Assembly: GCA_963709405.1 (NCBI GenBank)
Contig: CAVPXM010000013.1
Span: 46,419-110,418 of the forward strand
From: an uncultured Nitrososphaerales archaeon
Lineage (GTDB): Archaea > Thermoproteota > Nitrososphaeria > Nitrososphaerales > Nitrososphaeraceae
Direction of reading: 5' to 3'
Length of the DNA: 64,000 nt
The translations under genes were made by a program, and so were the position numbers. Below are positions 1 to 28,181 of the stretch, in pieces. The notes below the pieces were generated by a model that saw only the letters and a list, made by a program, of their open reading frames with translations, made no database searches and was not told the DNA's origin. Position 1 is the first letter of the stretch, and each line of letters begins with the position of its first letter.

Positions 1-102
1 TCGGTACTATACCAACATGCTATCCTCTCTCTCCCCGCCCCATAGTATCTAGCCTCGTTATATATCAGTCAAAGTAGATCATGCATCAAGTCAATAAAAA
101 TT
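1..102 (+). promoter_or_regulatory. Putative promoter/operator of radA-polB2 operon copy 1
   Basis: TATA-like GTTATATA at 57-64; ATCATGCATCAA at 78-89 (10/12 match to the perfect palindrome in copy 2); 1-40 resembles the reverse complement of the left palindrome arm upstream of copy 2. Confidence 0.55.
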
Positions 103-1110
103 ATGTCTCATGTCAGCGATCTACAGCTAGATGATATACCGGGAGTACAGCCACATCTAATAAGTAAGCTGAGACAAGCTGGTATCCAGTCAGTCCTTGA
201 TCTAGCTGTATCTGTCCCCCAGGAGCTTGCTGCAGGCGGAGAAGGTACCATAATTTCCGCCGATACAGAAGTCATATCAGAATTGGTATTGAAAGCCAAA
301 AAGGCTCTAATTGACTCGGGGGCACTTATCAAAGAATTCTCTACTGCTGACCAAGTGTTAGAGAGAAGAAAATCTCTTGTCAGATTTACCACAGGTTCTA
401 AAAACCTTGATGACTTTTTGAAAGGAGGAGTAGAATCCCAAGCTATAACAGAACTCGCTGGAGAATTTGGTTCAGGAAAGAGCCAAATATGTCATGCGTT
501 ATGCGTTACTGCTGCTAAAGGAACTAGGGGTCAAATTAACAGTATAATATTTGTAGATACTGAGAATACTTTTCGACCAGAAAGGATTCACCAAATAGCT
601 GAGGCCAGGGGGCTTGATTCAGACGAAATAATGAAAAAAGTGTTTGTGTGTAAAATAGTTAATAGTGCTCAGCTAGAAGCCCTGATAAGAAACCTTGGCA
701 AGTCAATTGAAGAGTATGAAGCTAGACTTGTTATTGTTGACAGTATTATCTCACTTCACAGAGCAGAGTATTCTGGCAGAGAAACACTAGCTGAAAGACA
801 GCAGAGACTTAATGTCATGTTGCATAAACTCATTCGCTTAGCAGAGATATACAATATAGCCGTAGTGCTGACAAATCAAGTTCAATCCTCGCCGGATAAT
901 ACCTATTCATTGAGAGCTACTGGCGGCAATATTATGGGCCATGCATGTACCTACAGAATTTTCCTAAGAAAGATCGGGCGAGATAGAATGGCAATAATGG
1001 TTGATTCCCCACACCATGCATACGACCAAGTTAAATTTACAATAACTGAGAAAGGGGTAGAAAATAGTGAAGCAAAAATAGCAATAGAAGGTAGCGAATC
1101 AGGGTGGTAG
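103..1110 (+). CDS. radA: RadA/Rad51-family recombinase paralog, apparently catalytically intact
   Basis: N-terminal HhH (LDDIPGV), FSTA polymerisation motif, Walker A GEFGSGKS, Walker B LVIVDS, RAEY..R..LAERQQRL, NQVQ, GGNIMGHACTYRI. Confidence 0.93.
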   Translation: MSHVSDLQLDDIPGVQPHLISKLRQAGIQSVLDLAVSVPQELAAGGEGTIISADTEVISELVLKAKKALIDSGALIKEFSTADQVLERRKSLVRFTTGSKNLDDFLKGGVESQAITELAGEFGSGKSQICHALCVTAAKGTRGQINSIIFVDTENTFRPERIHQIAEARGLDSDEIMKKVFVCKIVNSAQLEALIRNLGKSIEEYEARLVIVDSIISLHRAEYSGRETLAERQQRLNVMLHKLIRLAEIYNIAVVLTNQVQSSPDNTYSLRATGGNIMGHACTYRIFLRKIGRDRMAIMVDSPHHAYDQVKFTITEKGVENSEAKIAIEGSESGW

Positions 1111-1114
1111 TGGT

Positions 1115-2863
1115 ATGAGCCCTAACGAAATACTTTATCCTGACCCACATATAATTCCAGTACCACCTTCACCATCTTACCAACAACCAATACCTCTCGT
1201 GACACTATCTGAGCTAATTCCAGGCAAGTATGTATCTACAACAGCAAGAATTGTTTACGTCAAGACTGTGGAAAGACAGGATGCTCTTGGAAGCAAAACA
1301 ATTTTTTCTGGAATATTAGAAGATTCTACTTTCAAGGTTCCTTTTATTAGCCACAAAATTTCATATCCTCTGATAAGAAATTCTATTTATAAGTTCAATT
1401 CTTCATACGTACATGAATTTCCTGTTGATAAATCTCTATTACTTGTACTGACTGAACATACAAAGATTGACTCAAAGAACGTTGAAGATTATAGAGATTT
1501 CATTTGGAGTCCAAAGATAGAATCAATAAAAAGACCAGTTAGAAGTGTTAGTTTGAACGGAATAATAACTACTGTACATAACAATTCTGGGCTTATTAAA
1601 AGATGCAACAAATGTAAATCAATAATTTATGATACTTGTCCAAACAAATGTCCTTTAGATCAAGGCTGGGGTTGGGACCTAAGAGTTTCTTCTAGAGTGT
1701 ATGATGGCTCAGGCTCAATTAAGATGGTTTTGACTAAAGACATAGCATCAAGAGTTTTGCATAGAAACCTAAGTGAGCTAATTTTACTTGCATCACAGGA
1801 TAAACCCCTGACGCAGAACATACAACAGCAATCGTCCTCTGTAAAAATAAAAATTCCAGAGAGTATAGAAATAATAGAGGCGGTAACAGAGAACACATCC
1901 TCTTCCTACAGAAGTAATGGAAAACTTATTGTAACTGACGGAAGAAACCTAGTTTTCTTTCCCTCAGAATTGGAAGAAGAGGAAGCACACAAGTTCTCAG
2001 AGCATGTCAAAAGACTACTAAAGACTTCCGACGTAGAAGATAGAAAGATAATCAGAAAGCTGATTGAAAAAGCACTTGACATTAGCATCAAAAAAGTAAC
2101 GAGTATGAGAATGATGCAGGGAATTTATCTTCTAGAAGAACCAATTTCCTTGTATAGATGTGAAAGGGCAAAACTATACCTTGGATTTTCTATTAGAGTG
2201 AGTTTGATAGATGACGGTATAGTCACAGTCGAAGCAACCCCCCAAGCCTACGTCAGAGAAAGTGTACTTGATTATGTTAAACTAAGAAGAGAAAGAGGGG
2301 CAACTGCAAATGCCGTAGTACGTAATTTGTTGACATATAGAAACAAGGTAATAGTTGCACCATCTGGAAATTACGGCTGTATTGTCGATGTCGTTGCCAA
2401 AAAGGCGGGGAACCAACAGGTATCTAACACTGACAATAGGAATTTGGTAGAATTCTGGAAACAAGTATACGGTATTGAGATTTCACCTGATGAAATTCCT
2501 CTACTAAAAGTAAAGATGATGAATTCTGAAAATGTTTTTACTTATCCCCCTAGTATGTCCTTTTTTGGTAATGATTCTTTACTTATTTACGCAAATGTCC
2601 AGAGATTTATTGAAAATAAAAAATATAACCTAAAAGCAAAAATGGAAGATGTTGTCAGAGAAATACTACAGCAAGATCTAGCTATTGGCTCCGTAAAGCT
2701 AGAAGTAGAGGGATTAGCTGCTTCCCAACATTCGGATGTACAAAGCCAGCTCCTGCATGAAATAAGACAAAAATTGTTTGGAAGGAATGCTACAGCAAGA
2801 GGCTCAATTATGTTTGTACACGATGAGCTATGGTTTTTTCCTAATCAGATACAGCTTTTATAA
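1115..2863 (+). CDS. RPA-like ssDNA-binding protein (OB + Zn-finger OB) with inserted Argonaute-like N-L1-PAZ-L2 module
   Basis: OB1 (LSELIPGKYVSTTARIV..GILEDST); Zn-OB (SGLIKRCNKC..CPNKC..DLRVSSRVYDGSGSI) completed by C-terminal EIRQKLFGRNATARG; insert has L1-like LYLGFSIRV..SVLDYV and PAZ-like NLVEFWKQVYGIEI..IPLLKV..YPPSM. Confidence 0.72.
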   Translation: MSPNEILYPDPHIIPVPPSPSYQQPIPLVTLSELIPGKYVSTTARIVYVKTVERQDALGSKTIFSGILEDSTFKVPFISHKISYPLIRNSIYKFNSSYVHEFPVDKSLLLVLTEHTKIDSKNVEDYRDFIWSPKIESIKRPVRSVSLNGIITTVHNNSGLIKRCNKCKSIIYDTCPNKCPLDQGWGWDLRVSSRVYDGSGSIKMVLTKDIASRVLHRNLSELILLASQDKPLTQNIQQQSSSVKIKIPESIEIIEAVTENTSSSYRSNGKLIVTDGRNLVFFPSELEEEEAHKFSEHVKRLLKTSDVEDRKIIRKLIEKALDISIKKVTSMRMMQGIYLLEEPISLYRCERAKLYLGFSIRVSLIDDGIVTVEATPQAYVRESVLDYVKLRRERGATANAVVRNLLTYRNKVIVAPSGNYGCIVDVVAKKAGNQQVSNTDNRNLVEFWKQVYGIEISPDEIPLLKVKMMNSENVFTYPPSMSFFGNDSLLIYANVQRFIENKKYNLKAKMEDVVREILQQDLAIGSVKLEVEGLAASQHSDVQSQLLHEIRQKLFGRNATARGSIMFVHDELWFFPNQIQLL

Positions 2864-2864
2864 T

Positions 2865-3654
2865 ATGTCATTTAACATGCATTCTGCGTTAGAGCAATTC
2901 AATGAACATAGAAACACTTTGAAGATGACAACGGGATCTGCAGACCTTGACTCACTTATAGATGGTATACAGGAAGGTCTATTCTATCTGTTTTATGGCA
3001 ATAATCGCTTGGCTCTAGATGCACTAGTCTATACATTTCTTGTCAACTGTGTGCTGCCAATAAAACAAAGATATGGCTTTGAGTCAATGGCAGTTTGTCT
3101 TAATAATGTAGATTATTGTGATCAAAGAAAGACAGCTGCACTAAGCCCAGAGAAAATAGGAGTTGGCAGCAAAATGTGCTAATATAGACCCAAAGATTAT
3201 TTTTAAGAACCTATATGTTCACCCCGCATATAACCAGCAGCATCAACTAACGGTAGCAGAGCAAGTTGCTGACCTAATAGAATCTAACAATGACATAAAC
3301 CTGCTGGTAGTGAATAACATAACGAAATTCTTCCGCGAATCAAAAAATAAAATGGAAACTGCCAATATTCTAAAGGAAGTAGTAGGGATAATTAGCAGGG
3401 CCCGTACCAAAAACAAAGTGGCTGTGGCGTGTACTGGAGATGCAAATACAACGGCCAAAGGAATAATACCACGACCAATTGGTGGTATATACTTAAAACA
3501 TACAGCAAATGTAATTGTACATTTCAAAGAATTCTCCAAGACCTCCGGTATCCCTTCATTTAAGGCCACGCTAATAAAGCATCAATACACAAAGACTCCA
3601 AAATCTGCAGTTATGTATGTAAGAAAAGCTGGGGGAATGATGCTTTTAGATTGA
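2865..3654 (+). CDS. Inactivated RadA-like protein (iRadA), split by a +1 frameshift near 3163
   Basis: TTGSADLDSLIDGI RecA-fold start; Walker A degenerate (YGNNRLALD); Walker B LLVVNN; PIGGIYLKHTANVIV; ATG at 2865 one base after the upstream stop. Confidence 0.8.
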
Positions 3655-3667
3655 GAGGTGTTGGAAA

Positions 3668-4027
3668 ATGGGCAGAATAACACCATCATTTCGTCAATTG
3701 TATGAAGAAATAATATCAGAGCTAAGAACAGAGCTGCAGGCAGCGCTTGTAGATCTAGGCCACAAAAGTGCCTTTGACCTTCTGTTAAAAGAAGCCTGGA
3801 ATCCGGAGCAGGCGGCTATGGGGAATTCTACGTTACCAACAGTAAGCGACAAACTTAACTTCATGGCATCTATCCATAATAGAAAACTAATTGCGGCATT
3901 ATCAAGAGAATTAAAAGAAAAGGATTTGGAGATACAAGAACTCAGACAGAATATCAACTCGCTTGAAAATAAAATAAATGCTTTGGCTACTAAAACCAAA
4001 CAAGTGGAAAAACAGGAGGTCCAATAA
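3668..4027 (+). CDS. Small helical PolB2-associated protein (arCOG07300-like) with C-terminal coiled coil
   Basis: MGRITPSFR..AL.D...AFDLL..A signature; lies between iRadA and PolB, as in known PolB2 operons. Confidence 0.75.
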   Translation: MGRITPSFRQLYEEIISELRTELQAALVDLGHKSAFDLLLKEAWNPEQAAMGNSTLPTVSDKLNFMASIHNRKLIAALSRELKEKDLEIQELRQNINSLENKINALATKTKQVEKQEVQ

Positions 4028-4029
4028 CG

Positions 4030-6219
4030 ACGACCCGTTGCACTGGATGGCTTCTTGATGTATCTATTGACAACGATCATGCAATACTATGGATAAAGAC
4101 CGAAGATGGACAAATCCTTAAACTAAGAGACTCATATCATCCAGGATTCTATATATTACCAAGAAACGAATCCGATGAATTACATCTTTTTCAAATTCTA
4201 TCTAGAGAAGAAGATATAACGGTAAGGGAGGAAAACAAGCTTACAAACCTTTTTGATAGTAGGAAGCAAACAAGACTAATTTACGTACAATTACATTCCT
4301 TAAGATATTATCAATCTCTGCTAAAGAAGCTAGCTGAACATTCTCAAGTAAAGCAATTGTTCAATGCAGACCTTTTACACGTCCAACAATATCTCTTTAC
4401 TAAATTAAAAATTGAACCTACAAGCAAAGTGAAGGTAGAATACAATGGATCAAAGCTACTTGGAGCAGATAAGGTTGATGACACCGATGATTTACATTCT
4501 CCCCCGTTTTCATTACTATATTTTGACCTTCATACGTATTCAGGAATACTTGCTTCAGATGACGCTATCAGGATGATTAAGGTAAGATATGAACAAAACG
4601 ATGTCATATTTAATAATAGTGAAGAAAAGGTAATTTTGCAACAGTTCTCTGATTGTGTTCACGAAAAAAATCCTGACATTATTGTTTGCATGGACAATTA
4701 TGATGATGGTAAAGTGCTTCGGTATCTATTTGCCAGAGCAAAGAAGATTGGATTTCATTTGCTGCTTGGAAGGGATGCAGAATTCAACGGAAGGATTTGC
4801 ATCAGCAACAGTAGTTATAGAAAGACAACATACTTTGATGAATTCGGGTTTGCTGGATTAATAGAGCGAGCAAGATTTGGCTTTCTTCCTTTGGATTTGG
4901 CAGCCAAATATAGTATAAACCGTCTAATCGATGGCAGGAATTGTTTTGAACTAATTCAGAGAGAATTTATTATTCCTTCTAGGGGCAACAATCATGAGCA
5001 TGTCAGAACTGTAGAGCAAATAATTTCAGGAGATAAGGGGGCTATGATAATTTCTCCGCAAATAGGTCTGCATGAAAATGTGCTTGCTTTAGACTATGAT
5101 AGTGAATATGCAAATCTAATTGTAAACCACAATTTGAGCTATGAAACTGTTGGCGGGGAAACCATCCATCATCCAAAGAAAGGATTACTTCCTAGCATAG
5201 TTGAGCGATTCCTCAAAAGACGACTATATTTTAAAAAATTGTTAAAAGAAATACCCAGAGACAGTATAGAATCTGTATGGTGTGAGCAAAGAGTAAATTC
5301 ACTAAAGAATATACTTGTTTGCCTTTATGGTTCAACTGGTTCTCTTTGGAATAGGTATGGAAATGTGCTTGCATTTGAGGAAATCAATAGGCTATCTCGA
5401 GGAGTACTGATAAAAACAAAAGATATTGTACAATGGCTAGGTTATGAGCTAGTATATGCAGATACTGACTCTGTATTTATCAAGAGAACAGAATCTGCTA
5501 GAGATTATAATGAAGCTATAGGTACCCTTTCAAAGCAAACTGGTCTTTCAATATCAATTGACTACCATTACAAGTTTTTAGTTTTATTACCATTAGAAGC
5601 AGATGAAAGGATAGAAGTACTCAAACATTACTTTGGAATTACTTTTGACGGTGAGCTAGTGGTTAGAGGTATAGAGATAAGAAGACACGACGTCCCCGCT
5701 TTTATAAAGCAATTTCAAACCAACCTTCTTTATACGCTATTTGATTGCAAAGATTCATCTGAAATACTATCAAAAGGATATGAAAATGCTCTTTTACTTG
5801 TCACTCAAGCGATTGATGCGATCATGACGGGGGAAGGGATTGATGATAAAGATCTTGTAATCTCCAAGTTGCTGAGACAGGATATACAAAAATACAAGAG
5901 TTTATTCCCCCATGTGTCTGCGGCTATTCAACTAAAAAAGTATCCTCTAAAAGGTGACACAATTCAGTATATTTACACAGATTCAAAGCATAACAATCCT
6001 CTTTGTAGAGTAGTTCCTATAGAAAATACTAAATCTCTGCCCCAGGACGATAAAGAAAAGTACAAAGAAATGATACTTGATGCTGCAGAAACAGTTCTAG
6101 GATTTTTTGGCTTTGATAGGACTGTTTACAGCAATTTCAAGAGGAATACGAGAAGAAAAAAGTGGTATGAAGAATTAAGAGAACAGAGAGTAAGTGACAT
6201 AGAAACGGAGATGCTTTGA
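4030..6219 (+). CDS. PolB2-like family B DNA polymerase; start codon reads ACG
   Basis: Open frame from 4030 aligns with the copy 2 N-terminus (TTRCTGWLLDV vs MTSCIGWLLDV); motif A DYDSEY, motif B KNILVCLYG, motif C YADTDS, VRGIEIRRHD; ExoI is D-L-H. Confidence 0.88.
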   Translation, partial: TTRCTGWLLDVSIDNDHAILWIKTEDGQILKLRDSYHPGFYILPRNESDELHLFQILSREEDITVREENKLTNLFDSRKQTRLIYVQLHSLRYYQSLLKKLAEHSQVKQLFNADLLHVQQYLFTKLKIEPTSKVKVEYNGSKLLGADKVDDTDDLHSPPFSLLYFDLHTYSGILASDDAIRMIKVRYEQNDVIFNNSEEKVILQQFSDCVHEKNPDIIVCMDNYDDGKVLRYLFARAKKIGFHLLLGRDAEFNGRICISNSSYRKTTYFDEFGFAGLIERARFGFLPLDLAAKYSINRLIDGRNCFELIQREFIIPSRGNNHEHVRTVEQIISGDKGAMIISPQIGLHENVLALDYDSEYANLIVNHNLSYETVGGETIHHPKKGLLPSIVERFLKRRLYFKKLLKEIPRDSIESVWCEQRVNSLKNILVCLYGSTGSLWNRYGNVLAFEEINRLSRGVLIKTKDIVQWLGYELVYADTDSVFIKRTESARDYNEAIGTLSKQTGLSISIDYHYKFLVLLPLEADERIEVLKHYFGITFDGELVVRGIEIRRHDVPAFIKQFQTNLLYTLFDCKDSSEILSKGYENALLLVTQAIDAIMTGEGIDDKDLVISKLLRQDIQKYKSLFPHVSAAIQLKKYPLKGDTIQYIYTDSKHNNPLCRVVPIENTKSLPQDDKEKYKEMILDAAETVLGFFGFDRTVYSNFKRNTRRKKWYEELREQRVSDIETEML

Positions 6220-6465
6220 TGAAGACAAAAGGAGTTCTCGTGTATATTTCATACATATGAGCTTATCCTATGTATCTGATAAGTATCCTTAATTGAATCA
6301 TCATATAAAAAATATCATAAAGGCATTAGAATAACCAAGGACAAAATTAAGAAATATGCTTTTGCCTATGTGCAGTTAATAAATTAAGATATATCTTTCA
6401 ATCAGGTTGGTTCGACTTAAATCTTCAACTGAAATAGCTCCCTAGAGTCACCTTGATACCACGAG

Positions 6466-6860
6466 CTGTAACTTCTACTGCGTATCTGAATTTTTTGTCT
6501 AATTCAGGTATGATATCTCTCAAACTATTCATACCTTCAACTATACCTGTCGAGGGTGGTAACTATATCAATAATGCTAAAATTTTGTCTTCAAGGTTAG
6601 CTATAGAAGAAAAGAACAATTTCAGTTCTCTTTCTACATCTTTTAGCCTTTTATCATGAGTTATGACTCTTGGAAATTTGGCAGCAAATCTAAAATGGTC
6701 AGGAGTCTTTTTGCACCAATTCTTACCATAAATTCGTTAGGAATCCTGTAGAAAGAAGAATCAATTTCGACAAAATCAAATACTTGAGAATAATAACTTA
6801 ACCACTTGGAATTTTCCAGATTGAGAGGATAAAATGGTCCTTGCCATGCTGAATAACATA
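6466..6860 (-). pseudogene. DUF72-family remnant
   Basis: YSAWQGPFYP..LSYYSQVFDFVEIDSSFY, then after a frameshift WCKKTPDHFRFAAKFPRVITHDKRL..LLI*LPPS..YAVEV; internal stop, truncated. Confidence 0.8.
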
Positions 6861-7164
6861 ATACGTCGTTTACAGAAAAGACAATGCACAGTTCGTTCCC
6901 ATGAATCGATAACTGACAAGTTACTGTAGTATAATACATCATATCTAAGCTATATGTAGCGCAAATCGAGAGCAATTAGAATACAACATTTAATATCCGA
7001 CCAGGACGCAACTGTTATACTTCAAGCCGATCTCGAATCCTAGAAGTACATCTTATATAATTTATTCCTGTAGTAGGTCTTATGGAAGGTGTAAAGAATC
7101 ATGCATTTATTAGAAATATAGTCTATGGAACACTGCTTTTCCGCCGACAAGAAGGAGAGAAACA

Positions 7165-7970
7165 ATGACCGACCACAAGATCGGAACACGTGAAGAGTGG
7201 CTTGCGGCCAGGCTAGATCTGCTAAAGGCCGAGAAGGAGCTGACGCGACGTAGCGACGAACTGGCGCAGTGGCGGCAGAGGCTGCCGTGGGTTCGAATTG
7301 ATAAGGAATACCGTTTCGAGACCGACGAGGGCACCGCGTCCCTAGCCGATCTCTTCAGAGGACGTTCGCAGCTCCTCGTCTATCACTTCATGTTCGGCCC
7401 CGAGTACACAGGCGGACTGCCCGGCGTGCTCGGCCATCGCGGACGGCTTCAACGGTTTTGCTGTGCATCTCGAACACCACGACGTCGCGATGATCGGGGT
7501 CTCACGTGCTCCGATCGCCGCGTTGCAGGCCTACAAGCGCCGCATGGGCTGGACGTTCAGGTGGGCCTCGTCGCTGGATAGCGATTTCAACTATGACTTC
7601 AACACGTCGTTCACAGAAGAGCAGCGAGCTCTCCGGCAACCTGTACTATAACTACCACAAGGGTGGCATAACCTCAGGTTCGGAGGCCGGCTCAGAGGGC
7701 AGTCAAGACCGGCGTCAAGCTGATTTGGCGCTGACGCCAAAAGTGTTCGCTGCCATGACCGGAACCGACATCCCCACTTACACTCGCGAGGCGCCGGGCA
7801 TGAGCGCGTTCGCGCTCTCCGACGGCGTCGTCTACCACACCTACTCCACCTACGCTCGCGGTCTCGACGCACTCTGGGGAATGTACCAGTGGCTTGACCG
7901 CGCACCGAAGGGGCGTAATGAAACTGGGCCATGGTTTCGGCGGCACGACGAGTACACGGAGAATAGCTAA
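7165..7970 (+). pseudogene. DUF899 thioredoxin-like protein, frameshifted, GC-rich
   Basis: REEWLAARLDLLKAEKELTRR..LPWVRIDKEYRF..LFRGRSQLLVYHFMFGP; VYHTYSTYARG..LDRAPKGRNE; spread over three frames. Confidence 0.88.
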
Positions 7971-10433: not shown

Positions 10434-10939
10434 ATAATGCAAGACAGCAAACAGCAAAACTGTTGGCAAATGCCGCATTCGGAGTTTATGGAAGTCCTAA
10501 TTTCAAATATGCTAATTATAAGGTGGCTGAGACTATCACAGCAGCTGGCTGGATAATTGACGAGGATATGATAAACCTCTGTTCTGAAGAACGATTTGGA
10601 TTTGAAGTGGTCTTTGGGTTTACCGATGGAATTTTAGTTAAAAATGCTACCATTGAGAAAATTAATCAGTATATCAAGGAGGCTGAACAAAAACTTGATG
10701 TTGAAATTGAACACAAAAACGGATTCTTAAATACATTGATATTTCCACAATTAAATAGATATTTAGCCCGGAGTGGTAGACCAGATGAAAAACCCATATT
10801 AAAGAATATTGATGGCATGAATAAACGCTCTCCAAAATGGGTTCAAAAATATATTGAAAAAATTGCCACATGTCTTATTACTAATCCCAGCCGTGAGCAA
10901 ATCCTGAAATATACTTTTAGCATAACGCATAGTTTATAA
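10434..10939 (+). pseudogene. Fragment of a different family B DNA polymerase (fingers/palm)
   Basis: ARQQTAKLLANAAFGVYG (motif B), AETITAAG, FEVVFGFTDGILV (variant motif C); no N-terminal domains. Confidence 0.8.
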
Positions 10940-19589: not shown

Positions 19590-19716
19590 GGGAAGGGAGA
19601 GGATAGTATGGGTTAGTACGGTATTTTACCTATTGAAAGCTCCTCTCCCTGCCTCCAACTGGCTTCTTCTGTTATATGCAAGTCAAGGGAATTGATGCAT
19701 CAAGCCAACAAAAATC
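19590..19716 (+). promoter_or_regulatory. Promoter/operator of operon copy 2 with long imperfect palindrome and 12-bp perfect palindrome
   Basis: AGGGAGAGGA (19594-19603) and TCCTCTCCCT (19641-19650) inverted; GTTATATG at 19671; TTGATGCATCAA at 19692-19703. Confidence 0.6.
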
Positions 19717-20766
19717 ATGTCCCATGTTAGTGATTTGCAGCTAGAAGATTTGCCGGGAGTAGAACCCCATTTAATAAATAAGCTAAAACGAGCTGGCATA
19801 CAATCGGTTTTAGATTTAGCTGTATCTATCCCACATGAGCTTGCATTAGGAGCAACAGAGTATGATAGTGGTGATCGTGGCGCAGTTACGGCTGATACAG
19901 AGACTATATCAGATGCAGTTTTAAAAGCCAAAAGAGCTCTCATTGAGTCCGGCGCACTTATCAAAGAATTCTGTACTGCAGATCAAGTCCTAGAGAAAAG
20001 GAAATCCCTTGTCAGATTTACGACGGGTTCTAAAAACCTGGATGATTTTTTGGAAGGAGGAGTAGAATCTCAGGCTATAACAGAGCTTGCTGGAGAATTT
20101 GGTTCAGGAAAGAGTCAGATATGTCATGCATTATGTGTGACTGCTGCTAAAGCAGAAAGTAGCAGTCATATCAATAGTATAATATTTATCGATACTGAGA
20201 ACACATTTCGGCCAGAAAGAGTTCACCAGATAGCTGAAGCTAGAGGCCTTGATTCAGAAGAAATAATGAAAAAAGTGTTTGTTTGTAAAATAAATAATAG
20301 TGTTCAGCTAGAAGCCCTGATAAGAAACCTTGGCAAGGCCATAGAAGAGTACAAAGCCAAACTTGTTATCGTTGATAGCATCATTTCCCTTCATAGGGCA
20401 GAATACACCGGGAGAGAAACGTTAGCTGATAGACAGCAGAGACTTAATATCATGTTACATAAACTCTTGCGATTAGCAGAGATATACAATGTAGCGGTAG
20501 TTCTCACAAATCAAGTTCAGTCTTCACCAGATAGTACTTTTGGTGGCAGTAATTCCCTGAGAGCTTCGGGGGGTAATATCATGGGCCATGCTTGTACATA
20601 TAGAATTTTCCTTAGAAAAATAGGACAAGACAGATTAGCAATAATGGTTGATTCTCCCCTTCATGCATATGACCAAGTTAAATTTACAATTAGTGAAAAA
20701 GGAGTAGAAGATGCTGAAGAGAAAAAAATGGCAGCAACAGTAGAAGGTAATGAGTTAGGGTGGTAA
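19717..20766 (+). CDS. radA: RadA recombinase paralog, copy 2
   Basis: Same motifs as 103-1110 (GEFGSGKS, LVIVDS), with many substitutions and small indels. Confidence 0.93.
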   Translation: MSHVSDLQLEDLPGVEPHLINKLKRAGIQSVLDLAVSIPHELALGATEYDSGDRGAVTADTETISDAVLKAKRALIESGALIKEFCTADQVLEKRKSLVRFTTGSKNLDDFLEGGVESQAITELAGEFGSGKSQICHALCVTAAKAESSSHINSIIFIDTENTFRPERVHQIAEARGLDSEEIMKKVFVCKINNSVQLEALIRNLGKAIEEYKAKLVIVDSIISLHRAEYTGRETLADRQQRLNIMLHKLLRLAEIYNVAVVLTNQVQSSPDSTFGGSNSLRASGGNIMGHACTYRIFLRKIGQDRLAIMVDSPLHAYDQVKFTISEKGVEDAEEKKMAATVEGNELGW

Positions 20767-20767
20767 A

Positions 20768-22547
20768 ATGAGCGCTAGCGAAATACCAAGAACTATTCTT
20801 CAAAATGAGTCTCCTGATCCAAAGACTCTTCCAGCACCCCCCTACCAACTCAACGCCAACCATTACCTCTTGTAACATTATCAGAGCTTATCCCAGGAAA
20901 ATATGCGTCTACAACAGCAAGGATTGTTTACATCAATGCAATACAAAAACAGGATGCTCTTGGAAGCAAAATGATATTCTCTGGAATATTGGAGGATTCT
21001 ACTTTCAAGGTTCCTTTTATTAGTCATAGAATATCGTACCCTCTGATAAGAAATACTATCTACAAATTTAGTTCCGCTTACATACATGAATTTCCTTCAG
21101 ATAAATCGCTTTTACTTATAGTAACAGAGTATACAAAGATTGACTCCAAAAATGCTGAAGACTACAGGGATTTTATTTGGAATCCAAAAATAGAATCAAT
21201 AAAAAGACCAGTTAGGAGTGTTAGTTTGAATGGAATAATAACCACAGTACATAGCAATTCAGGGCTTGTTAAAAGATGTAACAAATGTAAATCAATAATG
21301 TATGATACTTGTCCAAACAAATGTAGCCTAGACGCAGGATGGGGTTGGGATCTCAGAGTTTCTTCTAGACTGTATGATGGCTCTGGCTCAATTAAGATGG
21401 TTTTGACAAAAGATATAGCATCAAGAGTATTGCACAGAAACCTAAGTGAGTTAATTTTACTTGCATCTAAGGATAAGCCTTTGACGCAAAACCTACAACA
21501 AGAGTCTTCAGAATTTAAAATAAAAATTCCCGAAAGCATAGAGATAGTAGAGAGGCAGTAACTGAGAATACTTCCTCTTCTTCTTACAGGAAAAATGGAA
21601 AACTTATCGTATCTGATGGAAGAAATCTTGTTTTCTTTCCCCCCGAATTAGAGGAAGAGGAAGAAGGACATCACTTCTCAGAGCGAGTCATAAGACTATT
21701 AAAGACCTCTGATTTAGAGGATAGAAAGATAATCAAAAAATTAATCGAAAAAGCACTTGATATTAACATCAAAAAAGTAACTGGCATGAGAATGATGCAG
21801 GGAATATATCTTCTGGAAGAGCCTATTTCCTTGTATAGATGTGAAAGGGCAAAACTCTATCTTGGATTTTCTCTTCGGGTGAGTTTGATAGGAGAAGATA
21901 GTGAAGTTACAGTCGAAGCAACTCCCCAGGCTTATGTAAGAGAAAGTGTTCTTGATTATGTTAAATTAAGAAGAGAACGGGGGGCTACTGCAAATGCTGT
22001 AGTACGTAATCTTTTGACATATAGAAATAAAGTAATAGTTGCACCATCTGGAAATTATGGCTGTATCGTTGATGTTGTTACAAAAAACGCAGGAAGTCAA
22101 CAGGTTTCAGAAACTGACAACAGAAGCCTTGTAGAATTCTGGAAGCAAGTATATGGAATCGAGATTTCACCTGACGAAATTCCTCTGCTTAAAGTGAAGA
22201 TGATGAATTCTGAGAATGTATTTACCTATCCTCCCAGCATGTGCTTTTTTGGTAGTGACTCTTTACTCATTTACGCAAATGTTCAAAAATTTATTGAAAA
22301 TAAAAAATATACTCTGAAAGCAAAAATGGATGACGTTATTCGAGAAATACTGAAGCAAGATCTAGCCATTGGCTCAACAAAACTAGAAGTAGAGAAATTG
22401 GCTGCTTCCCAACATTCTGATGTACAAGGCCAGCTTTTACAGGAAATAAGACAGAAATTATTTGGAAGGAATGCCGTAGCAAAAGGCTCAATTATATTTG
22501 TACATGATGAGCTATGGTTCTTTCCTAATCAGATACAGCTCTCATAA
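20768..22547 (+). pseudogene. RPA-OB / Argonaute N-L1-PAZ fusion, copy 2, two frameshifts
   Basis: Colinear with 1115-2863; frameshifts near 20840 (C-run) and 21550 (extra AG); PAZ-like SLVEFWKQVYGIEI..YPPSMCFF. Confidence 0.75.
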
Positions 22548-22583
22548 AACAAACTGAGAGGATTGGTGGCGAGATAAACAACC

Positions 22584-23386
22584 ATGTCAAATCAAGTTTC
22601 GTTTGAAATACATTCTGCATTAGAGCAATTCAATGAACACAGAAACACATTGAAGATGACTACCGGTTCGGCAGACCTTGACTCGCTTATCGACGGTATA
22701 CAAGAAGGACTATTCTATCTGTTTTATGGCAATAACCATGTGGTCTCTAGATGCAATAGTCTATACATTTCTTGTTAACTGTGTGCTGCCAATAAAACAA
22801 AGACATGGCTTTGAGTCAATGGGAGTTTGTCTTAATAATGCCGATTACTATGACCAAAGAAAGACTGCTGCACTGAGTCCAGAGAAAATAGGAGTTGGCA
22901 GCAAAATGTGCAGGTATAGATCCAAAGATTGTTTTTAAGAACCTCTATGTACATCCAGCATATAACCAGCAGCATCAACTAACAGTTGCAGAGCAAGTTG
23001 CTGACCTAATAGAATCTAACAAGGACATAAAACTGCTGGTAGTGAATAACGTAACCAAATTCTTCAAGGAATCAAAAAATAAGATGGAAGCTGCTAATAT
23101 CCTAAAGCACGTAATTGGGATACTTAGCAAGGTTTGTACCAGGAATAAGGTGGCGCTAGTATGCACAGGAAATGCAAATACAACAGCTAGAGGAATAATA
23201 TCACGACCAATAGGGGGAATATATCTAAAACATGCAGCAAATGTAATTGTACATTTCAAAGAATTCTCCAAAACCTCTGCCATTCCCTCATTTAAGGCCA
23301 CGCTAATAAAACATCAATATACAAAGACTCCAAAGTCTGCAGTTCTTTATGTGAGAAAAGCGGGAGGAATGATGCTTTTAGATTGA
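22584..23386 (+). pseudogene. iRadA copy 2, two frameshifts
   Basis: Colinear with 2865-3654; frameshifts near 22745 and near 22895, the latter identical to copy 1. Confidence 0.8.
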
Positions 23387-23422
23387 GTTCTTCTGTTGTT
23401 AGTAAACAAGGTGTTTTCACAG

Positions 23423-23792
23423 TTGGGTAGAATAATACCATCATTTCGACAATTATATGAGGAAATAATATCAGAACTAAGAACGGAGCTACAGGCAGCA
23501 CTTGTAGATCTAGGCCATAAAAGTGCATTTGATCTTCTATTAAAAGAAGCCTGGAATCCCGAACAGGCGAGCTATGGGGAACTCCACCTTACCAACAGTC
23601 AGCGACAAACTAAATGTTATGGCATCAATTCACAATAGAAAGCTAATTGCAGCATTATCAAGAGAGTTAAAAGAAAAGGATTCTGAGATACAAGAACTCA
23701 AACAGAGCATCATCTCACTTGAAAATAAGCTGAATGATCTGGCTATCAATACCAAGCATAACGAGGAAGTGGAAAGACAGGAGCCGCGATAA
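23423..23792 (+). pseudogene. arCOG07300-like protein copy 2, one frameshift
   Basis: TTG start, GRIIPSFRQLYEE; extra base at about 23570 (GCGAGCT vs GCGGCT in copy 1). Confidence 0.75.
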
Positions 23793-23794
23793 TA

Positions 23795-26125
23795 ATGACA
23801 AGCTGCATTGGATGGCTTCTTGATGTTTCCATTGACAATGAACATGCGATACTATGGATAAAGACTGAGGATAACCAGATTCTCAAGCTGAGAGACTCTT
23901 ATCATCCAGAATTCTATATATTACCTAGAAATGAATTTGATGGGTTACATCTTTTTCAAATTCTATCTAGAGAACAAGATATCTCAGTAAAGAAAATTAG
24001 ATGGGAGGAAAACAAGTTTACAAATCTTTTCAATAAGAGGAAGAAAAGACTAATTTACGTACAACTACAATCATCAAGATATTATCAACCTCTACTAAAG
24101 AAGCTTGAGAATGACTGCCAAGTAAAGCAGCTATTCAATGCAGACCTTTTACATGTTCAGCAATACCTCTTTGTTAAATTAAAAATTGAGCCTACTAGCA
24201 AAGTAAAAGTAGAATACGACAGCGACTCCAGGCTGCTTAAGATTGTCAAGATTGACGATGAGGATGAAGTAAAGCCTCCCCCGTTTTCATTACTATATTT
24301 TGACCTTCGCACATGTTCAGGAATAGTTGCTTCAGAAGATGCTATCAGTCTGATTAAGGTAAAATACGCAGGAGAAGACATTATGTTTGATGACAGTGAA
24401 GAAAAGGTGATTTTGCAGCAATTCTCTGACTATGTTCTTGAGAAAAATCCTGACATTATAGTTTGTATGGGTGATTATGATAATGGTAAAGTACTTCGGT
24501 ATCTATTTTCCAGAGCAAAGAAGATTGGGGTTGATTTGCAACTTGGAAGGGATGATGATGATGATAACAATCATTATTCTAATACTTTAGAAAATCCTAG
24601 GATCATAGGAAGGATTTGTATTAGTAGTAGCTATAGAAAGACGACACATTTTGATGAGTTTGGCTTTGTGGGATTAATAGAAAGGGCAAGATTTGGTTTT
24701 CTTCCTTTAGAAATGGCTGCCAAATATAGTATACATCGTCTCATAGATAGCAGAAACTGCTTTGAATTAATCCAAAAAGACTTTGTAATTCCGTCTAGGA
24801 TTCATAGCATTGACAACAGCAGCAATAATCACGAACATATCAGAACTATAGAGCAAATAGTTTCAGGAGACAAGGGAAGTATGATAATATCTCCACAAAT
24901 TGGGGTGCATGAAAATGTGGTTGCTTTGGATTACGATAGTGAGTATGCAAATCTAATTGTGAATCATAATCTGAGCTATGAGACTGTCAGTTTATCAGAA
25001 GAAGAAAGCATTGTAGGGGATAGAAGAAGAAGAAGAAGAGTTGTTGTAGCAAACCAGCCAAACAAAGGATTACTTCCTAGCATAGTAAAGCAATTTCTCA
25101 AAAGACGAATTTATTTTAAAAGATTATTAAAAGAACTTCCAAAAGACAGCAGAGAGTCTGAATGGTGTGCGCAGAGAGTTAATTCGCTAAAGAATATACT
25201 TGTTTCTCTTTATGGTTCAACTGGTTCTCTTTGGAATAGATTCTGGAATGTGCTTGCTTTTGAGGAAATCAACAGACTATCTCGAGAAGTACTAATAAAG
25301 ACAAAAGATATTGTACAAAGGCTTGGTTATGAGCTAGTTTATGCAGATACAGATTCTGTTTTTATCAAGAGCAAAACAGCAAGAGATTATAATGAAGTTA
25401 TAGATACACTTTCAAAAGAAACTGGTCTTTCGATATCAATTGAATACCATTACAAGTTCTTGGTTTTACTACCATTAGAAGCTGATGAGAAGATAGAAGT
25501 ACTCAAGCATTATTTTGGAATCACTTTTGATAATGAGATAGTGGTAAGAGGCATAGAGATAAGAAGACATGATATTCCTAATTTTATAAAGCAATTTCAA
25601 ACTCAGCTTCTATACACATTATTTGATTGCAAAGATTCATCTGAAATACTAACAAAAGGATATGAAAATGGCCTTTTACTTATCACCCACGCCATAGACA
25701 CAATTATGACTGGGCAAGGTCTTGATGATAAAGACCTTGTGATCTCCAAGTTGCTCAGGCAGGATATAGAAAAATACAAGAGCTTATTCCCCCATGTATC
25801 TGCGGCTATTCAATTAAGTAGGCATCCTCTCAAAGGTGATACAATTCAATATATCTATACAGATTCACAGCATAATAACCCGTTGTGTAGAGTAGCACCC
25901 ATAGAGAACATACTATCAGAGTCTCTACCTCCATACGACAAGGAAAAATATAGAGAAATGGTTCTTGATGCTGCAGAAACAGTTCTAGGGTTTTTTGGGT
26001 TTGATAGGACCGTTTATGGAAATCTCAAGAGGAATAATGATGGGAGAAGAGGAAGAAGGAAATGGAGATGGTATGAAGAAATACGGGAACAGAGAGTAAG
26101 AGACATACATACTGAGACGCTTTAA
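23795..26125 (+). CDS. PolB2-like family B DNA polymerase, copy 2, intact
   Basis: DYDSEY, KNILVSLYG, YADTDS; ExoI D-L-R; 776 aa. Confidence 0.92.
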   Translation: MTSCIGWLLDVSIDNEHAILWIKTEDNQILKLRDSYHPEFYILPRNEFDGLHLFQILSREQDISVKKIRWEENKFTNLFNKRKKRLIYVQLQSSRYYQPLLKKLENDCQVKQLFNADLLHVQQYLFVKLKIEPTSKVKVEYDSDSRLLKIVKIDDEDEVKPPPFSLLYFDLRTCSGIVASEDAISLIKVKYAGEDIMFDDSEEKVILQQFSDYVLEKNPDIIVCMGDYDNGKVLRYLFSRAKKIGVDLQLGRDDDDDNNHYSNTLENPRIIGRICISSSYRKTTHFDEFGFVGLIERARFGFLPLEMAAKYSIHRLIDSRNCFELIQKDFVIPSRIHSIDNSSNNHEHIRTIEQIVSGDKGSMIISPQIGVHENVVALDYDSEYANLIVNHNLSYETVSLSEEESIVGDRRRRRRVVVANQPNKGLLPSIVKQFLKRRIYFKRLLKELPKDSRESEWCAQRVNSLKNILVSLYGSTGSLWNRFWNVLAFEEINRLSREVLIKTKDIVQRLGYELVYADTDSVFIKSKTARDYNEVIDTLSKETGLSISIEYHYKFLVLLPLEADEKIEVLKHYFGITFDNEIVVRGIEIRRHDIPNFIKQFQTQLLYTLFDCKDSSEILTKGYENGLLLITHAIDTIMTGQGLDDKDLVISKLLRQDIEKYKSLFPHVSAAIQLSRHPLKGDTIQYIYTDSQHNNPLCRVAPIENILSESLPPYDKEKYREMVLDAAETVLGFFGFDRTVYGNLKRNNDGRRGRRKWRWYEEIREQRVRDIHTETL

Positions 26126-26163
26126 TACTAAGAAAAGGAGTTTCTTTGCAGGATTAGAAAAAG

Positions 26164-27081
26164 ATGAGCGAACTAGTACTTGTAGGATGTTCAGGATGGA
26201 ATTATGGTGATACTCCAGATAAAGGGGTATGGACTGGTGTATTTTATCCAAATAAAGATACTAAAAGATTAAGGTACTATTCTCAGTTCTTTAACACAGC
26301 AGAGATGGACTCTATTTTTTATGAAAAATTCTATTCCCAAATGACTAAAGGCACATTTATTGGAATGGTAAGAGCTACACCAGAGAAATTCCAATTCTCA
26401 GTAAAAGTACCTGAGACTATTACTCATAAGAAGAGATTGGATATTAATAAGGGTGCCATGGTAGACTTTGAAGAATTTCTCGATAAGATATCTCCCCTAA
26501 AAACTGCAAATAAATTAGGAACAATACTAATTCAACTTCCTCCAAGTTTTACTGTTAGTGATTTTAAAAATATAGAAAGTTTTCTTGATAGACTGCCATC
26601 ATCTTCCTCCTCATCATCCTCATCAGGTCATTATGATTATGCTGTTGAATTCAGACATCCTTCATGGAGTACTGAAGGTCCATGGGATATGTTAAGGCAT
26701 TATAATATTGCAGCTGTGATGACAGACTCCCCTGCAAGAGAAAATTTGCAATTCCTATCAGATATTACTATAACTACGGCTGACCATTCCTTCATTAGGT
26801 TTCATGGAAGAAATGCAAAAGATCATTACTGGTATAACTACCTGTACGGCAAAGAAGAACTAAGACCATGGGTTGAAAAAGTATCACAGATAAAACAGCA
26901 GACTAAAGTTCTGAGAATATACTTTAACAATCATTATGGAGGAAAGGCAGTTGTTAATGCTTTGGAGTTCAAAGAAATGATTGGTATGTCACTATCGGAA
27001 AAAGAAAGGAAGGTTCTAGAAGAAGCAAAGCATTATCTTTCAAACAAATTCTTTCTGAAGGGAAAAGAGTTAGCTAAATAA
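26164..27081 (+). CDS. DUF72 (YecE/YunF) family protein
   Basis: VGCSGWNY..FYP..LRYYSQFFNTAEMDSIFY, FSVKVPETITH, QLPPSF, AVEFRHPSW, IRFHGRN, YFNNHYGGKA. Confidence 0.93.
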   Translation: MSELVLVGCSGWNYGDTPDKGVWTGVFYPNKDTKRLRYYSQFFNTAEMDSIFYEKFYSQMTKGTFIGMVRATPEKFQFSVKVPETITHKKRLDINKGAMVDFEEFLDKISPLKTANKLGTILIQLPPSFTVSDFKNIESFLDRLPSSSSSSSSSGHYDYAVEFRHPSWSTEGPWDMLRHYNIAAVMTDSPARENLQFLSDITITTADHSFIRFHGRNAKDHYWYNYLYGKEELRPWVEKVSQIKQQTKVLRIYFNNHYGGKAVVNALEFKEMIGMSLSEKERKVLEEAKHYLSNKFFLKGKELAK

Positions 27082-27148: not shown

Positions 27149-28181
27149 TGTTGTACTTACTGACATAGGTGACATTATAGCTTACAGACATGGGTTACAC
27201 TTCTGTCGGGAAGTGAATCCATATAGAAATCAGAATAAGGTTTAATCTAATACACGAAAAAGAATGGACTGGTGATACCATATGTAATATTTGTAAGAGA
27301 TATGGTGTATCCAGAAAGACTTACTACAAGTGGAATAATAGATACAAGCAGAAAGGGATAGAAGGCCTATCAGATAACTCCAGAAGGCCTCATAAAATCA
27401 ACTACAGGAAGGTAACACCAGAAGTAGAAGAGACTATACTTGATCTACGATTAACTAAGAGATTTGGATGTAATAGGATCAAGTTTCGACTAAAAAGAAT
27501 CATTGGAATCTCATTAAGCACCCGAACTATATACAAGATACTAAAGAGACATTGTCTTAATATCCTCATGTGTAAGGCCAAAGCAAGAACTTACAAACGG
27601 TTTGTCATGAAGCATCCAAATGATATGGTGCAAGTGGATATCCTTGGCCCTTTCTATCTGAGTAATTCCAGTCAAAGGAATTACATCATTAGTTGCTTAG
27701 ATGATTGTTCTAGGAAGGTAGCTAGCAAGTGGTCCGAAAGAAAGAGGTCAGTGGATGTTCTTAATGTATTAGAGGACTGGATAATGATTAATGGTAAGCC
27801 TAAGATGATGATGCATGATAACGGTAAACAGTTTACATCCAGAATATTCAGACATTTCCTTATACATAATCAGATAAAAGATAAGCAAATACCAAAATCA
27901 TATCCGCAGTTACAGGGCAAAGTAGAAGCATATAACAAGATTGTAAAGAGTGAATTCATAGCATTAGAAGATATACCAAACATAGATGATGGTAAACAAA
28001 GATACGACATGTTTGTTAAAGCATATAACGAAACCAGAGAACATGGAGGCATAAATGGTCTTACTCCATCGGAGATGTTCCTACAAAGGTTAATTACATC
28101 CAGTACACATACGAGAACTAAACAGAAAAGTGTAACCCATGTAGGTAATTAGAAATGTAACCTATCCGTGCAAGTACAACA
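27149..28181 (+). mobile_element. IS481-family element
   Basis: TIRs TGTTGTACTT.../...AAGTACAACA; 6-bp TSD ATTAGG (27143-27148, 28182-28187); HTH + rve transposase with QVD, HDNGKQF, GKVEAYN. Confidence 0.92.

Follow-up and report, generated by a model that had tools for sequence, protein, structure and literature searches.

The 64,000-nucleotide stretch of DNA analyzed here (the window), from an uncultured archaeon of the family Nitrososphaeraceae, carries five adjacent, co-oriented genes close to its start: a RadA recombinase, a gene that we call RPA/PAZ, an inactive RadA paralogue (iRadA), a small PPB2-like protein, and a family B DNA polymerase of the PolB2 type. A second, partly broken copy of this unit lies further along (Table 1). 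We focused on RPA/PAZ, whose open reading frame (ORF) opens with an ATG codon 4 nucleotides past the stop of the RadA gene, contains no internal stop, and encodes 582 amino acids. Based on structure predictions and profile searches, the gene encodes a real, conserved chimera that joins an archaeal replication protein A (RPA) of the Rpa1 type to the N-terminal lobe of an Argonaute and has neither MID nor PIWI. In the models, this lobe, arranged N-L1-PAZ-L2, is inserted where strand 3 of a zinc-ribbon OB fold connects to strand 4.

Architecture of the RPA/PAZ protein

We modeled the protein with AlphaFold2 (AF2) from a 21-sequence alignment whose members were 89% down to 23% identical to the query; the mean predicted local distance difference test (pLDDT) score was 78.4. 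Foldseek comparison against the PDB returned PIWI/Argonaute chains (E ~1e-10, ~400 columns) and P. abyssi RPA (E ~5e-10) as the top matches. A Foldseek-independent search of 48,161 PDB representatives placed the same two families first (the Argonaute KmAgo, 8xhs_A, Z 13.6, model residues 239..538 against 4..302; Rpa1, Z 13.0) and also returned RPA70 DBD-C, Teb1 OB-C, AfAgo-N, the APAZ proteins of SPARTA and SPARHA, and Med13. We made a second AF2 model for a 440-amino-acid relative from a metagenome locus (L078:8004-9326), which is 26% identical and reached a pLDDT of 82.9. Its matches included Rpa1 (8aaj_A, Z 15.1, model 28..440), RPA70 DBD-C (8rk2_A, Z 13.1, root mean square deviation [rmsd] 4.0, 135 aligned), the Argonaute HrAgo1 (8r3z_A, Z 12.5, 244 aligned, model 127..401), and the PAZ domain of hAgo1 (1si2_A, Z 11.1, model 249..357). 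This variant lacks the first OB fold, and a divergently oriented Orc1/Cdc6 gene takes the place of RadA upstream of it, so the conserved core of the family is the zinc-ribbon OB fold with its Argonaute insert.

The RPA-like character of the N-terminal part is supported by both profiles and folds. RPA OB folds bind single-stranded DNA (ssDNA). The NCBIfam "single-stranded DNA binding protein" family PRK07218 matched residues 33-223 (E = 4.1e-17), and the replication factor A family PRK06386 matched the protein at E = 2.9e-16. Both RPA equivalog cutoffs were missed (62.3 versus 447 bits for NF005554 and 59.7 versus 556 bits for NF004998). A profile built from the RPA/PAZ family matched the OB domain of Ta0387 at E = 3.9e-6; its match to P. 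abyssi replication factor A was weak (E of 0.16 to 0.19). For the first OB fold, residues 27-142 aligned with the S. solfataricus single-stranded DNA-binding protein (SSB; 1o7i_B, Z 13.6, rmsd 2.4, 108 aligned; VIA-align), and the domain also matched the AROD-OB-1 region of P. abyssi Rpa1 (8aa9_A, Z 11.8). The zinc ribbon of the second OB fold (C164/C167/C175/C179) is conserved, with either Cys or His as the final ligand in distant members.

This second OB fold is split by the Argonaute insert and, in the model, is closed by the C-terminus. Residues 131..582 aligned with the zinc-bearing OB fold of P. abyssi Rpa1 (8aas_A 186..339) at Z 12.9 over 144 residues, and since residues 131-228 hold only ~98, the match can be made up only with the helix at 542-554 and the two strands at 558-568 and 571-581 near the C-terminus of the model. 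Two further alignments likewise extended to the end of the chain: residues 133..582 with the OB fold of AsnRS (5xix_B, 85 aligned, rmsd 1.7) and residues 129..582 with human RPA70 DBD-C (1l1o_C, Z 10.1). Fold matches to RPA70 fell at its residues 439..597. In the model, the last 37 residues thus complete the zinc-ribbon OB fold. By DSSP assignment on the model, the chain terminates in strand 571-581, without the C-terminal helix of the Rpa1/RPA70 trimerization core. We found no OB-fold neighbors within the module; the genome elsewhere was not searched for Rpa2 or Rpa3.

The intervening residues, 239-545, resemble the N-terminal half of long Argonautes. The region matched MILI (9ij4_A) at Z 15.7 (rmsd 4.3, 284 aligned; VIA-align), KmAgo (8xk0_A 3..303, Z 13.6; 8xhs, Z 13.7), and HrAgo1 (8r3z_A 30..391, Z 12.4). 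A sequence signal was also present: the PADLOC long prokaryotic Argonaute (pAgo) model PprPIWI matched residues 252-512 over profile positions 33-268 of 666 (E = 7.8e-6), a span wider than PAZ alone. PADLOC gave no system-level match beyond this similarity to the pAgo N-lobe.

Argonautes and Dicers are the proteins from which PAZ domains are known; there, the domain grips small RNA or DNA by the 3' end. Residues 381-488 superposed on the Hiwi1 PAZ (3o3i_X) with Z 12.8 and rmsd 2.6 over 102 aligned residues of a 108-residue chain, and this region also matched the PAZ domains of hAgo1 (1si2_A, Z 11.2) and Giardia Dicer (2ffl_A, Z 9.9). Beside the OB-like barrel, the second PAZ subdomain is present in the model as a helix (444-452) and a hairpin (463-477), indicating a full PAZ domain and not PAZ*. 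In the text of PMC6299218, it is this pocket-forming second subdomain that distinguishes full PAZ from the reduced PAZ*, and the pocket of full PAZ anchors a strand by its 3' end. Candidate residues for a putative 3'-end pocket in RPA/PAZ are the conserved R391, R392, W448, Y477, P478, P479, and S480, and the aromatic helix of the region aligns with the PAZ of Piwi-like 2.

Further profile support for PAZ came from relatives. The Pfam PAZ profile reached 27.6 bits in the protein of the second copy (cutoff, 28.8) and was found in 12 of 21 diverse homologues at E ≤ 0.1 (best E = 4.2e-5); precomputed PF02170 annotations were present on 3 of the 120 relatives listed. Searched against PDB sequences, a PAZ subprofile returned 10 matches at E ≤ 10, and all 10 were PAZ regions of the PIWI clade (E of 0.036 to 0.5). 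A single-sequence phmmer search against the same database found only PRMT1 at E = 0.18, which is at chance level, so that profiles and folds were needed. A feature search of the ESM Atlas with residues 236-545 found that the nearest clusters carry PAZ, ArgoL1, ArgoN, or Dicer domains, with scores of 0.83 to 0.89 that all fall below 0.9 and offer a lead only. Near clusters, also scoring below 0.9, included eukaryotic DUF4708/C18orf63-like proteins, a share of them with PAZ, which may be another PIWI-less PAZ family.

No counterpart of the catalytic half of Argonaute was detected. The Pfam Piwi profile (PF02171) matched neither RPA/PAZ nor any other protein of the source genome (91% complete), and control genomes did match. 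As for MID, the aligned ranges of KmAgo (3..303) and HrAgo1 (30..391) stop short of it and the residues outside 239-545 are all accounted for by OB folds, although such ranges give the first and last aligned residue only and other Argonaute matches show wider ranges. The protein is therefore not a member of the Argonaute family, as MID and PIWI were absent when tested; not a canonical RPA, given the failed family scores and the missing trimerization helix; and not an APAZ partner, given its PAZ domain and the lack of a nearby short pAgo. By its parts it would behave as RPA coupled to an end-binding PAZ. Among viral folds in BFVD there were 14 matches at E ≤ 0.001, the best aligned of which covered ~100 to 130 columns (phage proteins) and the rest of which were high-rmsd, LEF-3-type matches; no Argonaute or PAZ was named among them, and they give no lead to a virus.

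A preliminary description of this DNA, made from sequence alone, had anticipated much of this architecture. Its coordinates for the gene were exact and the ORF is intact. The RPA-like assignment of residues ~28-235 (an OB fold, then a second one with a zinc ribbon) agrees with the NCBIfam matches, the conserved zinc ribbon, and the Rpa1 and SSB folds, and the proposal that the last ~40 amino acids end the second OB fold is borne out by the alignments that reach residues 581-582. An insert of ~300 amino acids with Argonaute N, L1, PAZ, and L2 in order was recovered by profile and fold evidence in two models of 26% identical sequences, and its lack of MID and PIWI fits with the absence of a Piwi profile match and the assignment of all remaining residues to OB folds. 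The structure and profile searches that the description had proposed as a check of the insert and the C-terminus thus returned Argonaute/PAZ and OB-completing matches, respectively.

Table 1. Locus features, with nucleotide positions in the window
Feature	Position	Strand	Evidence or remarks
Module RadA, copy 1	103..1110	+	335 aa; predicted active; N-terminal helix-hairpin-helix (HhH), intact Walker A; Pfam Rad51 E = 2.2e-70, HHH_5
RPA/PAZ gene	1115..2863	+	582-aa Rpa1-like protein with inserted Argonaute N-lobe
OB fold 1	1196..1510	+	Residues 28-132; SSB and Rpa1 OB-1 fold matches, Ta0387 profile match
OB fold 2, first part	1511..1798	+	Residues 133-228; strands 1-3, C-x2-C-x7-C-x3-C zinc ribbon, helices after strand 3
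Argonaute N-terminal lobe, N-L1-PAZ-L2	1829..2749	+	Residues 239-545; Argonaute fold matches, PADLOC PprPIWI match
PAZ domain, both subdomains	2255..2584	+	Residues 381-490; Hiwi1 and hAgo1 fold matches, Pfam PAZ
OB fold 2, second part	2750..2860	+	Residues 546-582; one helix, strands 4 and 5 (DSSP of model)
iRadA, copy 1	2865..3654	+	Inactive RadA paralogue; two frames, frameshift near 3165; Pfam Rad51 on both pieces
PPB2-like small helical/coiled-coil protein	3668..4027	+	119 aa; position and size fit PPB2/arCOG07300
PolB2-type family B polymerase, copy 1	4030..6219	+	Pfam DNA_pol_B; frame open from 4033; ACG where copy 2 has ATG start
Second copy of five-gene module	19671..26142	+	RadA 19717..20766 and PolB2 23795..26125 intact; RPA/PAZ ~20836..22547 and PPB2 broken

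Conservation and distribution of the family

Among 8,000 candidates scored from a 90%-clustered collection, 924 were members of the RPA/PAZ family at E ≤ 0.001, and 345 representatives were found in a 50%-clustered library of 1.84 billion proteins; where a source name is given, it is "hypothetical protein." Organism labels comprised Nitrososphaeraceae, Thaumarchaeota/Nitrososphaerota, Bathyarchaeota, Thermoprotei, and one Methylomirabilota metagenome-assembled genome (MAG). The contig of this last genome (L067) encodes a RadA with an archaeal N-terminal domain and archaeal-type neighbors, so it is probably misbinned.

Full-length, intact orthologues were recovered at identities from 98% down to ~25%, with length and domain order kept. 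Across 10 diverse full-length members, 62 positions are kept in at least 9, and mean pairwise identity was highest in PAZ (0.43), followed by the first part of OB fold 2 (0.41), OB fold 1 (0.39), the N domain (0.25), and L2 (0.20).

Within the Nitrososphaeraceae, RPA/PAZ occurs in 31 of 121 sampled genomes (a count that includes the source genome and one fragment in G376), 16 of 81 high-quality genomes, and 8 of 18 genera. PPB2 was found in 27 of the 121. Of the 32 genomes with either gene, 26 have both, 5 have RPA/PAZ without PPB2 (in 4 of them only as fragments), and 1 has PPB2 without RPA/PAZ; the other 89 have neither. The distribution is patchy even within genera (3/6 genomes in g1, 8/14 in g130, and 5/11 in g138), and single genomes contain up to 9 RPA/PAZ matches, many of them fragments or interrupted by stops. 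Because stop and frameshift calls in other MAGs may partly reflect assembly errors, we did not build on them. Profile searches did not find RPA/PAZ in a sample of 43 sister-family genomes and gave one weak, OB-only match in a sample of 300 other genomes of the phylum.

Genomic context

The three genes downstream of RPA/PAZ correspond in order and features to the published iRadA-PPB2-PolB2 damage-tolerance operon, with the polymerase assigned from motifs and context. As described in PMC11791011 and PMC4104785, that operon encodes a RadA with a dead ATPase and no N-terminal domain (iRadA), PPB2 (previously named arCOG07300), and PolB2. According to PMC11791011, PPB2 is a small, trimeric, helical protein whose N-terminal arm is conserved, PolB2 is exonuclease dead with DxD kept in some TACK members, DUF72 and Orc1/Cdc6 genes are enriched near PolB2 operons, iRadA-PPB2 fusions are known, and frequent horizontal transfer of PolB2 among archaea is inferred. 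According to literature cited there, the main activity of Dpo2/PolB2 is to extend primer termini that are mismatched or mispaired, and the operon genes are damage-induced in Sulfolobales.

These features recur at the present locus and its relatives. The genes at 2865..6219 are adjacent and co-oriented in the order iRadA, PPB2, PolB2, which is conserved in other loci. Intact iRadA orthologues (302 to 308 amino acids in closer loci and 259 to 266 in the window's own clade) lack an HhH domain, with the Pfam Rad51 match beginning at residue 33, and none of the 9 aligned orthologues has a Walker A motif. The PPB2-like proteins are 101 to 131 amino acids long, show weak coiled-coil matches and no Pfam family above cutoff, and are likened to arCOG07300 from its published description; their N-terminus, MGRIT.SFR, is kept down to the most distant locus. 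The Exo I motif of family B polymerases is D-x-E. All 10 module polymerases have a DTD motif, and their Exo I position is variable and without an acidic pair. Among the genome-derived modules, the most divergent one has a single 366-amino-acid ORF that fuses iRadA with PPB2 (L067:9689-10789). The same contig has a sixth gene of 330 amino acids (L067:12822-13814) that overlaps the PolB2 stop and combines a Cys-rich N-terminus resembling a zinc ribbon with a Rad51-like Pfam domain. An intact DUF72 gene (26164..27081) directly follows PolB2 of the second copy in the window, and an ORF after the first copy (6661..6975, minus strand) appears to be a DUF72-like remnant, as read from its translation.

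On the upstream side, module RadA is, by sequence comparison, an extra RadA of the genome. The source genome's other RadA-like genes are 54% (C65) and 44% (C63) identical to it, and closed genomes without the module have the same two RadA classes, at 57 to 58% and 41 to 45% identity. The orthologue in the second copy clears the NCBIfam RadA equivalog cutoff (340.9 versus 259 bits).

The association of RPA/PAZ with these neighbors is strong. We surveyed 41 distinct places with the gene; fragments (L017 and L039-L045) were excluded from all three counts that follow, pieces cut by contig ends (L040, L041, L073, and L080) were counted only on the side with flanking sequence, several places share genomes, and relatives are not independent. 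iRadA lies within 600 nucleotides downstream in 29 of 30 near-full-length places with at least 590 nucleotides of flank (the exception being L053). Sequence upstream of the gene is available in 27 places, and all but L078, the variant without OB fold 1, have RadA there (26 of 27). Of the 18 places whose downstream flank reaches at least 3.5 kb, 15 have PolB2; it was not found in L049, L053, or L054. The order RadA, RPA/PAZ, iRadA, PPB2, PolB2 persists at 33% (L067) and ~25% (L075-L079) identity, and at least seven loci have all five genes intact (L047, L050, L051, L052, L058, L064, and L066).

We conclude that the PolB2 operon of the Nitrososphaeraceae is a five-gene version and that the whole unit is accessory. 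We also lean toward regarding RPA/PAZ as a lineage-specific component of the PolB2 "mutasome" operon of the Thermoproteota (TACK archaea). The preliminary description had correctly noted RadA and PolB as neighbors and missed the identity of the iRadA-PPB2-PolB2 operon, which narrows its suggestion of "repair" to translesion or mismatch extension. A complex prediction for RPA/PAZ (the L047 orthologue, residues 40-613, 18-row alignment) with iRadA (9-row alignment) scored 0.01 and 0.00 against a mark of 0.32 and speaks neither for nor against binding.

Two copies and the state of the locus

The unit at 57..6236 is repeated at 19671..26142 with ~80% nucleotide identity. Homology between the copies ends ~46 nucleotides before RadA and ~20 nucleotides after PolB2, and the flanks differ between loci and look like ordinary host genes. 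In copy 1, RadA and RPA/PAZ are intact, iRadA is frameshifted, and ACG occupies the start position of PolB2. In copy 2, RadA and PolB2 are intact, PPB2 is split, and RPA/PAZ is interrupted by stop codons upstream of residue 17 and by a frameshift near 21553. Thus, the second copy mentioned in the preliminary description does exist, but the architecture it was said to conserve is encoded there by a broken gene. iRadA is broken in both copies, and every other function has one intact-looking gene across the two.

Two soil RNA-seq libraries (X1 and X2) from one study yielded contigs 90 to 99% alike over parts of window positions 27-3323, as well as small PolB2 pieces. Such contigs are no proof of transcription, and DNA carry-over is possible. 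One RNA-library contig, 95 to 99% alike, has one base fewer at 3165, so the iRadA frameshift may be strain specific or an assembly error.

A further RPA/PAZ fragment lies upstream of the window (C13:23761-24129, minus strand). It covers residues ~242-361, contains one TAA, and has no adjoining RadA or iRadA; 299 nucleotides of it are 99% identical to copy 1. We detected no integrase, terminal repeats, or other element genes inside or directly beside the module, and the only inverted-repeat pairs around it were 29 to 32 nucleotides long at 72 to 75% complementarity, which we took as chance. An rve-type integrase ORF is located at 27568-28152. Just upstream of the window, a ~1-kb repeat (C13:44589-45588) has ~14 near-full-length copies, 95 to 98% identical, on at least 11 contigs, plus shorter pieces; it looks like an active insertion sequence (IS) in a repeat-rich region. 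Elsewhere in the window, an orphan 158-amino-acid ORF (10463-10939) is weakly similar to the family B polymerase palm (Pfam DNA_pol_B, E = 0.0023, below cutoff) and is unrelated to the module PolB2, and a bacterial-type DUF899 gene (7165-7970) is broken into two frames that overlap, with its initial 84 residues matching Pfam DUF899 at E = 2.5e-35.

Proposed function and alternatives

We cautiously favor a reading in which the chimera would sense where a primer 3' end adjoins ssDNA, serving RadA and PolB2, with binding, 3'-end specificity, and hand-off all predicted steps. The preliminary description had proposed that 3' ends are captured and passed to the co-encoded RadA and PolB. Where a site is stalled or gapped, single-stranded template would be bound by the OB folds, and the PAZ pocket would hold the nascent or invading strand by its free 3' end, which might be frayed or mispaired. 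The junction between primer terminus and ssDNA could in this way be marked and the 3' end protected. The end would then be presented for extension to the module RadA and to the exonuclease-dead, polymerase-active PolB2 with iRadA and PPB2. As PolB2 mainly extends mispaired termini, a partner that holds 3' ends would suit its task.

Several observations weigh against this proposal. In RPA/PAZ itself, the Pfam PAZ match (residues 421-482, E = 0.0022) scored 18.4 bits, under the 28.8-bit gathering cutoff, and the pocket is putative, its candidate residues coming from sequence conservation and alignment. Nucleic-acid binding by either part of the protein is itself a prediction, and a protein without the trimerization helix may not behave like canonical RPA. 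The N-lobes of split and short Argonautes (AfAgo-N, Aga1, and SPARTA) match the insert at Z 9.9 to 11.4, yet they act as protein partners and do not bind ends. There are lesions in each module copy of the source genome, some of which could be assembly errors. Finally, the module is patchy (8/18 genera and 0/43 sister-family genomes), often multicopy, and broken, which marks it as dispensable and could mean that it is selfish.

The partner-type matches point to an alternative that we consider unlikely but quite conceivable, namely that the Argonaute lobe is a protein-protein scaffold docking the RPA part on PolB2, iRadA, the PPB2 trimer, or RadA, so that the gene would provide a dedicated SSB with an adaptor and no end binding. 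The relevant folds are Aga1 (9lgw_B, Z 11.4, 166 aligned, chain length 190), Med13 (8tqc_D, Z 11.1), SPARHA (9om4_A, Z 10.5), AfAgo-N (8pvv_C, Z 10.4), and SPARTA (8j8h_B, Z 9.9), and the tightly coupled operon, in whose intact loci start and stop codons overlap, would also fit. However, known scaffolds of this kind lack PAZ, whereas here PAZ is complete and best conserved and N and L2 are least conserved, and no MID-PIWI partner was found in the genome. The distribution raises a different and rather improbable explanation, that the five genes belong to a mobile or selfish element as its cassette for recombination-dependent replication or repair. RPA/PAZ would then serve the propagation of the element, for example through priming from captured 3' ends, and not damage tolerance of the host. 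Patchiness within genera, the multiple and often broken matches per genome, the two copies and the nearly identical 299-nucleotide fragment on one contig, the nearby IS-like repeats and rve integrase, and the horizontal transfer of PolB2 inferred in the main text of PMC11791011 are all in line with such an element; against it, no element hallmarks were detected in or directly beside the duplicated unit, its flanks differ and look host-like, and its downstream genes form a host operon that is damage-induced in Sulfolobales (via PMC11791011).

We consider it very unlikely that the module is a guide-using system for defense or targeted mutagenesis, in which the PAZ lobe would hold short ssDNA or RNA by the 3' end, RadA would search for homology in place of MID-PIWI, and PolB2 would act at the target. 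The module has no nuclease or other effector and no PADLOC system-level match, and the known function of its downstream genes is translesion synthesis; what speaks for a guide is circumstantial, comprising a complete N-PAZ lobe without PIWI beside an extra active-type recombinase and a patchy distribution like that of defense systems. A related idea, also with only a slim chance of being right, is that the lobe is a programmable 3'-end holder that loads short, invading, or nascent strands onto RadA, whose homology search would replace MID-PIWI, and directs the error-prone PolB2 to chosen sites, which, if true, would amount to recombinase-coupled, Argonaute-derived targeting for defense or targeted mutagenesis. 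As a corollary of that idea, the Argonaute N-lobe may be an evolutionarily separable DNA-end-handling module in archaeal DNA repair. To a decaying fusion without present function we give next to no credence: copy 2 is broken and many relatives are fragments or contain stops, but intact orthologues span 98% to ~25% identity, at least seven loci keep five intact genes, and alignment columns are strongly conserved (in at least 9 of 10 members at 62 positions).

The linkage to the PolB2 operon suggests how PolB2 could be given a frayed primer end. It also adds candidate fourth and fifth components (RPA/PAZ and an active-type RadA) to the translesion "mutasome," whose composition has so far been inferred in silico only, and it bears on the evolutionary assembly of the two Argonaute lobes. 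The idea can be tested with one recombinant protein and simple DNA substrates.

Comparison with known systems

Full-text literature searches found no report of a PAZ-in-RPA architecture or of a PAZ/RPA partner of PolB2, nor of a PIWI-less, PAZ-bearing Argonaute half in archaea or bacteria or one nested in an RPA fold, consistent with the preliminary description, whose author knew of no account of this architecture. The main texts of PMC11791011 and PMC4104785 mention no RPA, OB fold, SSB, PAZ, or Argonaute; Supplementary Table S1 and data file 1 of PMC11791011, which list neighborhood genes, could already include this one.

Like archaeal Rpa1 (P. abyssi 8aaj, 8aas, and 8c5y) and RPA70 DBD-C, RPA/PAZ has two successive OB folds, the second with a zinc ribbon (Z 12.7 to 13.8; 14.4 to 15.1 for the L078 relative). 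Unlike Rpa1, it contains an Argonaute lobe of ~310 residues inside the zinc-ribbon OB fold, ends in strand 5, and scores far below the family cutoffs. With long Argonaute and PIWI proteins (MILI 9ij4, KmAgo 8xhs, and HrAgo1 8r3z) it shares N, L1, PAZ, and L2 in the same order (210 to 288 aligned, Z 12.4 to 15.7). In those proteins the lobe is not inserted within another domain, as it is here, and RPA/PAZ, which lacks both MID and PIWI, can neither slice nor bind the 5' end of a guide. AfAgo-N, Aga1, and the APAZ proteins of SPARTA and SPARHA resemble it in that an Argonaute N-lobe is encoded apart from MID-PIWI; they have no PAZ and lie beside a MID-PIWI gene, whereas RPA/PAZ has a full PAZ in a genome where no Piwi was found. 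The nearest published combination is the set of eight long pAgos with an extra N-terminal OB-fold domain in the text of PMC6299218. There, too, OB and Argonaute domains share one polypeptide, but those pAgos are complete, with the OB fold appended at the N-terminus, whereas the Argonaute half of RPA/PAZ is nested in an OB fold and has no PIWI. As that survey covers only pAgo proteins, a PIWI-less protein would probably not appear in it.

At the level of the module, PMC11791011 draws an analogy between PolB2 and the E. coli Pol V mutasome (UmuD'2C-RecA), as both pair an error-prone polymerase with a recombinase-family subunit on ssDNA gaps. The polymerase families are unrelated, and no PAZ-like or dedicated SSB subunit of Pol V is described in that text. 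Another close system is the PolB2 operon itself, as presented in the main texts of PMC11791011 and PMC4104785, which the module matches in its downstream gene order, its fusion variant, its DUF72 and Orc1/Cdc6 neighbors, the intact DxD motif, and its patchiness. It differs from the published operon in two extra upstream genes, the active-type RadA and the RPA/PAZ chimera, and is thus a known operon with a new, structurally unprecedented component.

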